A DNA stretch of 64,000 bases from Escherichia coli (GTDB taxonomy: Bacteria; Pseudomonadota; Gammaproteobacteria; Enterobacterales; Enterobacteriaceae): NCBI RefSeq assembly GCF_044647545.1, contig NZ_CP172818.1, one strand, 5' to 3'. Both the position numbers and the translations under genes were made by a program. The notes beneath the pieces are model-generated. The model made no database searches and was not told where the DNA came from. It saw only the letters and a program-made list of their open reading frames with translations. Of this stretch, positions 22,437 through 23,815 are shown piece after piece. Every line of letters begins with the position of its first letter. The first letter of the stretch is position 1.

Positions 22437-23815
22437 TTATTTATTGACTACTGCATCAATACTTAAACTTTCAACGGAGACACCTTTGGTTTCAATTCCA
22501 ATGGTGGCGATAGCAATTGCGACAATAATTGAAACCGCCCCCAGAAGAATAAAGACTCCCGTTACGCCATAACTACTGAGCAGCACTGCAACGGCATAAG
22601 GTGCGGCAATACCACTGATTCGCCCTACTGCATTCGCCAGACCGGAGCCACGTAATTTGGCCTCTGTCGGCCAGATCTCAGGGACATACACTGCCGAGGC
22701 ATAGCAAACGTACATATAGACGAAAGTAATCAGGAAGAAACCAATCAGCGTTATGAGCAACATACTGGTTTGCAGTGAATAGATATATCCGAGCACCGCA
22801 ATCAGGATTAATAGCCCCACCCCCATTGTTTTACGCGGAATTTTATCCATCACCAGCATGGCAATAAAAATACCAAATGGCGCGCCAAACATACTCATGG
22901 TATTTAAAACAATCGAGTCTTTTAAATTAATTCCCTGGGTCATGAATATCGTTGGCAACCAGTTAATTAGTGTGTACTGCACAACGTTCATGGCAATCAG
23001 CACACAAGAACCTAATATCACGCGTTTCAGTAATACTCCTGTTAGTAAGGCTGAATACGGCACCGCTTGTGGCGCTTTACCGTCATCAGCAATAACCACG
23101 GGCGGCAAAGGTTTTCCCGTCTGGCGTATGACGCCTTCTTCTATACTCCGCATGACTTTCTCGGCTTCCTGATACCGTCCGCGCGATTCCAGCCAGCGCG
23201 GGGATTCAGGAAAGTAGCGCCAGGCCAGCGCCGTAGCGATAAGCGACAATATTGCAGGGATAAGCAGTTGTACTCGCCAGTTCCACTCTGCACTAATCAG
23301 CGGCGTGAGTCCCATCGCAATCAATGAACAGAGCGGATATGACCAGTTGCCAATAAAAGAAACCCGACTGGACCACGTTCCGCGATTTCTACCGGGCATA
23401 TATTCGGTGAAACCAGCAAACAGCGTCACCAGTAAAGCTCCCAGCCCAACGCCCATCACAAAACGGCAGGCAATAAGGAAATCCATATTCGGTGAAAAGC
23501 ACCGACCACCATCGAGGCAATATGAATGGCCTCATAGAGGATGAACGCATTTCTGCGACCGGTTTTGTCACCGATGATGCCGCCAACCAGCGCACCGAGA
23601 AACATTCCGGCGGTCGTGATTGCTGAGAATGTGGCAGTGGTGGAATTATCTGTCCAGCCCAACTCTTTCAGCTGCGCGAGGATCAAGCCACCAACGGCAT
23701 TACTCCAGCAGACAAGCAAGCCAAACGCGACGATAGCAAACATTGACGAATGCCAGCGGCAATCCGGTAAGCGATCCAGCCGAGCACCACAATGCGGTTT
23801 TGTTATCTGTTCCAT
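22437..23815 (-). pseudogene. ydjK: MFS transporter interrupted by a -1 frameshift (two overlapping ORFs 23456..23815 and 22437..23486)
   Basis: Span is 1379 nt (one short of a multiple of 3); N-terminal 119 aa ORF and C-terminal 349 aa ORF are in different frames and together align colinearly with paralog YdjE; shift maps to A4 run at 23495-23498. Confidence 0.8.

Follow-up and report, generated by a model that had tools for sequence, protein, structure and literature searches.

The gene ydjK, which encodes a sugar-porter-type transporter of the major facilitator superfamily (MFS) in the ydjLKJIHGFE cluster of Escherichia coli, is broken by a single-base frameshift in the 64,000-nt stretch of chromosome analysed here (NCBI RefSeq assembly GCF_044647545.1, contig NZ_CP172818.1), hereafter called the window. 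The disrupted gene lies on the minus strand at positions 22437..23815, where it measures 1379 nt, compared with the 1380 nt and 459 codons for amino acids of its intact orthologs. Comparison with public genomes led us to place at about 90% the probability that this frameshift is a real, vertically inherited and lineage-specific pseudogene of the sequence type 648 (ST648) clone and its close kin. It is a case of ordinary gene decay in a successful clone, already flagged in public annotation, and a literature search on ydjK, on ST648 pseudogenes and on the names of the strains found no paper discussing the ST648 ydjK pseudogene. An earlier note on this DNA, made from the sequence alone, had offered two options, a real pseudogene or a homopolymer base-calling error. 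The evidence collected from other genomes, as detailed below, supports the first of them and effectively refutes the second.

The broken reading frame and its distribution

The anatomy of the lesion turned out to be that described in the earlier note. Two minus-strand open reading frames (ORFs) in different frames, 23456..23815 (ORF1, 119 aa) and 22437..23486 (ORF2, 349 aa), were found exactly in the ORF list, overlapping by 31 nt and spanning together the 1379 nt, one short of 1380. The run of four A proposed as the site of the lesion, at 23495-23498 on the plus strand, is present, since the reverse complement reads gcTTTTcacc with its four T at 23498-23495, and the coding (minus) strand around it reads ggt gct ttt cac cga ata tgg. 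Intact genes have at this place GCT TTT TCA, encoding A106, F107 and S108, with a run of five T. Translation of the 1379 nt in a single frame meets stops after residue 119, and the addition of one T, as had been suggested, mends the frame and gives a clean 459-aa ORF that reads ...VVGAFSPNMDFLIACRF... across the junction. ORF1 is made up of native residues 1-107, to which 12 residues read out of frame (HRIWISLLPAVL) are added before a TGA stop, and it keeps the GDKTGRR loop motif together with the predicted transmembrane segments TM1-TM3 (hydropathy peaks at 28-46, 63-81 and 90-108), whereas ORF2 comprises native M111-K459 with TM4-TM12. According to this hydropathy scan, which is a crude one, the break falls where predicted helix 3 ends, immediately ahead of helix 4, and the roughly 12 membrane helices of the family are no longer encoded in one polypeptide, about three of them being found in ORF1 and the remainder in ORF2.

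The complete 1379-nt ydjK was recovered by megablast in many complete genomes at 100% identity, over its full length and with the same base missing. In this line, a 61-nt probe centred on the run was searched against the complete RefSeq E. coli genomes, of which 3,388 matched and 59 did so exactly. The other 3,329 are not exact, and every non-exact one among the matches listed spans 62 nt, corresponding to a five-base run, which was seen among these listed matches in K-12, O157:H7, ST131 and CFT073. The 59 carriers were obtained from humans, from animals (dogs, wild birds, a dolphin, pigs and poultry), from chicken meat, from wastewater and from a waste bin, on several continents, and they stem from many laboratories. 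All seven carrier records examined have the gene labelled "ydjK, MFS transporter, frameshifted" by the Prokaryotic Genome Annotation Pipeline (PGAP), and the 119-aa product occurs in exact form, out-of-frame tail included, on at least 1000 public contigs (NCBI, JGI/IMG, ENA and Logan). One and the same lesion is therefore present in independent genomes of the lineage, as befits an inherited pseudogene. Being a defined lesion set against thousands of orthologs, it raises no question of a chance pattern.

Doubt about the base calling at ydjK was reasonable because the source assembly has a few garbled patches elsewhere. Two of them, at 8516-8672 and 46810-46904, show homopolymer-length changes and low complexity; neither is found in the reference genomes compared, and the first one is found in no complete genome. 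If the missing base were an artefact of this kind, the true genome would have five A and the assembly of the window would have lost one of them in the homopolymer. However, 59 complete genomes produced independently of one another have the identical allele, and contigs from four sources have the exact truncated protein; moreover, the allele tracks ancestry, and a marker nested within it in the adjoining ydjL gene is found in carriers only. The chance that the four-base run at 23495-23498 is a base-calling error is consequently close to nil, and the case illustrates that an apparent homopolymer error can be settled by cross-genome comparison without reads.

All 59 carriers belong to one near-identical lineage, which includes a strain deposited as "ST648" (NZ_CP008697.1) and strain IMT16316, also an ST648 (PMC6003029). 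A 25-kb query around ydjK reached its full bit score of 46167 in 25 genomes, the rest of the top 60 being within ~30 bits, and 55 of these 60 matches are carriers. The five non-carriers are WB61, 98203, LD67-1, SWHEFF_68 and EC476, the first three of which have a 1380-nt ydjK with a five-base run and an intact 459-aa protein (WP_000435312.1). In a 40-kb alignment of the window with seven other carriers and these three non-carriers, the latter differ from the window by 1-2 single-nucleotide polymorphisms (SNPs) plus indels, the frame being broken in the window with respect to these intact close relatives. The other variable sites of the alignment are private to one genome or common to one pair, and none of them conflicts with a single origin of the lesion. 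The five-base run is also that of K-12 and of all other lineages sampled. Because the near-identical WB61, 98203 and LD67-1 keep the five-base run and the alignment is free of conflict, five T is the ancestral state and four T the derived one within the ST648 lineage. The two comparisons that the earlier note had looked to for a decision, with K-12 ydjK and with other isolates, thus agree: the run has five bases in K-12, in WB61, in 98203 and in LD67-1, and four in the 59 carriers.

The identification of the gene as the ydjK of the ydjLKJIHGFE cluster, coding for an MFS transporter, is borne out by synteny, by domain content and by near-identity to the K-12 protein. The window shows the order ydjE-ydjF-ydjG-ydjH-ydjI-ydjJ-ydjK-ydjL with pncA and yeaC at the flanks, the same as in the K-12 chromosome, and the broken gene sits between ydjL and ydjJ. 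The restored 459-aa protein matches the Pfam profiles MFS_1 (PF07690, residues 28-406, E 1.2e-34) and Sugar_tr (PF00083, residues 54-452, E 6.4e-34) over its full length. It is identical to the YdjK of WB61 (WP_000435312.1) and only 2 of its 459 aa differ from K-12 YdjK, despite 32 differences in 1380 nt, and these figures indicate that ydjK was under strong purifying selection before a recent loss. With the same locus, gene order and neighbours as its K-12 counterpart, the window gene departs from it in having its frame broken after codon 107. No second lesion in ydjK was found in the eight carriers aligned over 40 kb. As for the paralog with which the break had been located in the earlier note, that comparison holds as well: ydjE (16208..17566, minus strand) is an intact MFS transporter gene whose 452-aa product is 44% identical to YdjK over 455 aa and reads ...GAAFVPDMYWLIFFRF... 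at the aligned site. The genes lying between the two transporters, ydjF, ydjG, ydjH, ydjI and ydjJ (17683..22420, minus strand; regulator, reductase, kinase, aldolase and dehydrogenase, respectively), are intact, the window being identical here to strain FDAARGOS_497, whose annotation gives them as intact and under protein accessions that are widely shared.

Among the clonal pseudogenes of E. coli that PGAP labels as frameshifted, the ydjK of the window is a typical example: one base is deleted from a short homopolymer, close relatives have intact orthologs, the distribution is clonal and the annotation flag already exists. Nothing essential sets it apart from them, the only extra feature being the nested in-frame lesion in the adjoining ydjL.

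A second, nested change in ydjL

The first gene of the operon, ydjL (23842..24915, minus strand), encodes a zinc-dependent dehydrogenase and is present in the window as a derived 357-aa allele, with the change located at 24587-24589. In this allele 5 nt have been replaced by 2 nt while keeping the frame, which turns TEKVNLG into TENHLG and shortens the protein from 358 to 357 aa; the GA of the window stands in place of a TTACT in the ancestral gene, as found in WB61 and 1428. A probe for the derived allele was exact in 49 genomes, the window included, all of them among the 59 carriers of the ydjK frameshift, whereas 10 carriers keep the ancestral ydjL and the probe search found the derived allele in none of the non-carriers. 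Because the derived ydjL occurs only within carriers while these 10 retain the ancestral form, the ydjK frameshift came first and the ydjL change second, the window being placed in the inner clade.

The way in which this second change arose seems to be written in the surrounding sequence. The site lies in an inverted repeat (24579..24621, unstranded) with 19-nt arms that are 95% complementary and a 5-nt loop, which was made near-perfect by the ydjL change, and the new GA is the complement of the TC in the opposite arm. The mutant sequence thus copies, as a complement, the opposite arm of a previously imperfect repeat, and the change carries the signature of a palindrome-templated (template-switch) mutation. 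Template switching within a near-palindrome is a mechanism that produces changes of this sort, a well-known example of such quasi-palindrome mutation being the thyA hotspot of E. coli. As in thyA-type mutations, a complex replacement (5 nt by 2 nt in ydjL) makes an imperfect inverted repeat with a short loop near-perfect, but unlike the quasi-palindrome mutations recovered in reporter assays, that of ydjL is a fixed natural polymorphism of a clade. At the protein level, the changed residues are found 3-5 positions after the last Cys of a Cys cluster that aligns without gaps to the cysteine-rich loop of the threonine dehydrogenase 2dq4. In this enzyme family the cluster holds the structural zinc.

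Probable loss of function and the alternatives to it

The sequence of events that best accounts for these observations starts in an ancestor within the ST648 lineage, where one T was lost, likely by replication slippage, from the five-T run of GCT TTT TCA at codons 106-108. Translation leaves the frame after F107 and stops 12 codons later, giving a 119-aa fragment with the first three of the twelve helices, and since the other 349 codons lack a dedicated ribosome-binding site, the transporter is most likely not produced. Fixation followed in a clade that later spread worldwide, the persistence of the mutation being probably due to neutral or relaxed selection. One of two uptake routes would be lost in this way, with the other ydj genes, including ydjE, staying intact. 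YdjE may cover uptake, and the ~1 kb of untranslated message may lower the expression of ydjJIHG through transcriptional polarity.

Three points weigh against this reading, or against its full extent. The ORF1 stop overlaps an in-frame ATG, which means that some C-terminal fragment could be made; the four-U run of the message would permit a rare -1 slip of tRNA-Phe that restores wild-type reading; and for most carriers the sequence type is deduced from near-identity over 25-45 kb and from the two named ST648 strains, and not from multilocus sequence typing. Since a restart at the overlapping codons and a rare -1 slip are both conceivable, a complete loss of YdjK function is something that we infer rather than affirm.

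The restart deserves a closer look. In the TGATG at 23454..23458 (minus strand) the ORF1 stop (23458-23456) shares its A with the ATG of M121 (23456-23454), an arrangement that seems accidental and where a terminating ribosome could nevertheless restart. A permease assembled from the 119-aa N-terminal piece and a C-terminal piece begun at M111 or at M121 would find some encouragement in this overlap, in the position of the break between predicted helices 3 and 4 and in the 339-aa product that gene finders call from M121, as they do in two of the public contigs (L013 and L014), the 349-aa form from M111 being seldom called (26 contigs). In this regard, Bibi and Kaback are reported to have found in 1990 that lactose permease can be active when it is expressed in two pieces separated at a loop. 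However, reading upstream of both the M111 and the M121 ATG revealed no Shine-Dalgarno-like sequence at a useful distance, and a restart at M121 would lose half of helix 4 and the conserved R118. Such a split protein would moreover be a by-product of a recent mutation and not a conserved design, given that ydjK is a single ORF in all other lineages, and the later second lesion in the adjoining ydjL fits relaxed constraint. A working split transporter is for these reasons very improbable. A little more improbable still is leaky or programmed recoding, in which tRNA-Phe would slip by -1 on U UUU, re-pair perfectly and yield the exact wild-type YdjK at a low level. The geometry permits it, as GCU UUU CAC read one base back gives UUU and then UCA CCG AAU AUG in the native frame, and the downstream -1 frame and the U run at the junction are shared with the genes for programmed -1 frameshifting, such as dnaX and the IS1/IS3 transposases. 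Unlike these, the ydjK site has neither a slippery heptamer nor a stimulatory structure nor a conserved shift: the RNA of 23405-23520, which takes in the run and the sequence after it, has a predicted fold no better than that of shuffled controls (z = 0.00), and the ancestors and all the orthologs sampled in other lineages are in frame, which leaves no selection for recoding. Four bases are also far too short for transcriptional slippage, and any yield should be at the level of background error.

A third way to keep the gene in use would be a phase-variable switch, with the run flipping between four and five bases at high frequency and turning the transporter on and off. In its favour, the same four-base allele occurs in a lineage that is 0.5% divergent from ST648 (product P0015; L013-L015), which suggests that the run has been hit more than once, and, as in contingency loci, a change in the length of a mononucleotide run switches the frame. 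But the run has four bases in all 59 carriers, eight of which were compared over 40 kb without conflicting history, and near-identical genomes show no mixed states beyond one clean split. The tracts of known contingency loci are longer than a five-base run, and their lengths vary among near-identical isolates; that of ydjK is of 4-5 nt, stable among the carriers and without an on/off mixture. A switch of this type can be practically discarded, and altogether none of the three, be it the split permease, the -1 slip or phase variation, has support. A pseudogene inherited by the ST648 lineage remains the preferred interpretation.

Probable recurrent loss of ydjK, other variants and expected consequences

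The ydj operon is known to be unevenly spread among phylogroups (PMC9602453). In our searches ydjK was present in 4,327 of 5,426 complete E. coli genomes and absent from about one fifth of them. The protein cluster that holds the 119-aa product also contains other truncated ydjK products from long contigs (P0003, P0004, P0013 and P0014): native sequence ends after residue 137 on 35 contigs and after residue 162 on 47, and two further distinct frameshift products are found on 4-5 contigs each. These products hint at a recurrent inactivation of ydjK across the species. The very same four-T frameshift accompanied by M25I and A30S (P0015) was found in three unrelated samples (L013, L014 and L015), the longest of which, a human gut metagenome contig with the frameshifted gene at 6001-7379 (L013), diverges by 0.5% from the window across 12.4 kb; a search for a closer complete-genome relative of this lineage found none above 99.6%. 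Because the nearest kin of ST648 have five T, the run has most likely lost a base independently at least twice, a deduction drawn from divergence and not from a sister pair.

A different question concerns the cause of fixation and not the nature of the lesion, namely whether the inactivation of YdjK and then the alteration of YdjL were selected and aided the clade. Two successive lesions in the first two genes of a single operon and in nested clades, the independent truncating alleles found elsewhere in E. coli (the 35, 47 and 4-5 contigs mentioned above), the second lineage hit in the same run and the absence of the gene from about one fifth of complete genomes would all be in line with an adaptive loss. 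Yet the facts fit equally a dispensable gene under weak selection that hitch-hikes in a successful clone, the number of carrier-private SNPs falling in ydjG-J (4 of 22, with about 2 expected from length) is not significant, and deletion of ydjK in K-12 lowered starvation-induced antibiotic tolerance (PMC8597633), an effect that is not obviously beneficial. We regard an adaptive loss as unlikely, and somewhat more doubtful still the broader proposal of a selected two-step dismantling of that end of the ydj pathway which comprises uptake and the first dehydrogenase, in a multidrug-resistant and globally successful ST648 clade, as part of a convergent loss of ydjK. If true, such a selected loss of ydjK and ydjL might serve to avoid the uptake of a harmful compound or alter starvation physiology. 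The pattern is compatible with a dispensable accessory gene subject to occasional decay, selection for its loss not being established.

Other variants were observed in the window and its relatives. At 8516-8672, covering the gdhA-topB intergenic region and the 3' end of topB, the window shows five differences in 160 nt with respect to otherwise identical ST648 genomes: deletions of 7 nt and 17 nt in an element resembling a repetitive extragenic palindrome (REP), an A3 to A4 and a C3 to C4 change, and the replacement of 5 nt by a 25-nt stretch rich in G/C runs. The C-terminal tail of TopB is read for ~21 codons in another frame before returning to ...NGVII, resulting in 657 aa versus 651 aa. 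This version is present in 0 of 5,426 complete E. coli genomes, and an inversion was tested as its origin and rejected. The patch is either a unique variant or a local fault of assembly or sequence quality. In the same interval (window 8517-8592), the ynjI gene that K-12 has between topB and gdhA (L011 35070-36110) is absent from the window lineage. At 46810-46904, the start of the gene yeaV for a BCCT-family transporter, the first ~45 codons are replaced by a stretch rich in A/T/C runs and the start is destroyed, with ~160 nt against 218 nt in FDAARGOS_497, and this looks like low-quality sequence rather than biology. At ~62072, between sdaA and pdeD, the window has a deletion of 17 nt when compared with FDAARGOS_497. 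Lost with it is the second arm of a hairpin, GCCCATC...GGATGGGC, which lies immediately downstream of sdaA and may be its terminator. In the relatives, yeaE carries a frameshift annotation only in the strain deposited as ST648, NZ_CP008697.1 (L001 593-1448). The gene is intact in the other carrier records examined and in FDAARGOS_497, whose yeaE matches that of the window exactly, and the frameshift is probably an error or mutation private to the NZ_CP008697.1 assembly. Strain Z226-7 has an internal stop in cdgI (L006 8078-9553), and an IS421 insertion splits yeaR in strain 98203 (L009 42180-43888), both of them private.

Regarding the pathway that YdjK would have served, a passage of PMC9602453 cites Huddleston and Raushel 2019 for the characterisation of the YdjH kinase and the YdjI aldolase, and it states that both act on long-chain sugar acids, the best substrate of YdjI being L-glycero-L-galacto-octuluronate. 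As clade markers, the four-base allele of ydjK and the ydjL allele nested within its carriers split the ST648 lineage into three recognisable groups. The ST648 strains of the carrier clade probably depend on YdjE alone for import by the ydj cluster. Deletion of ydjK in K-12 resulted in a lower starvation-induced tolerance to ampicillin and gentamicin (PMC8597633) and, given this result, the natural ydjK knockout found in a multidrug-resistant clone could merit phenotypic comparison.
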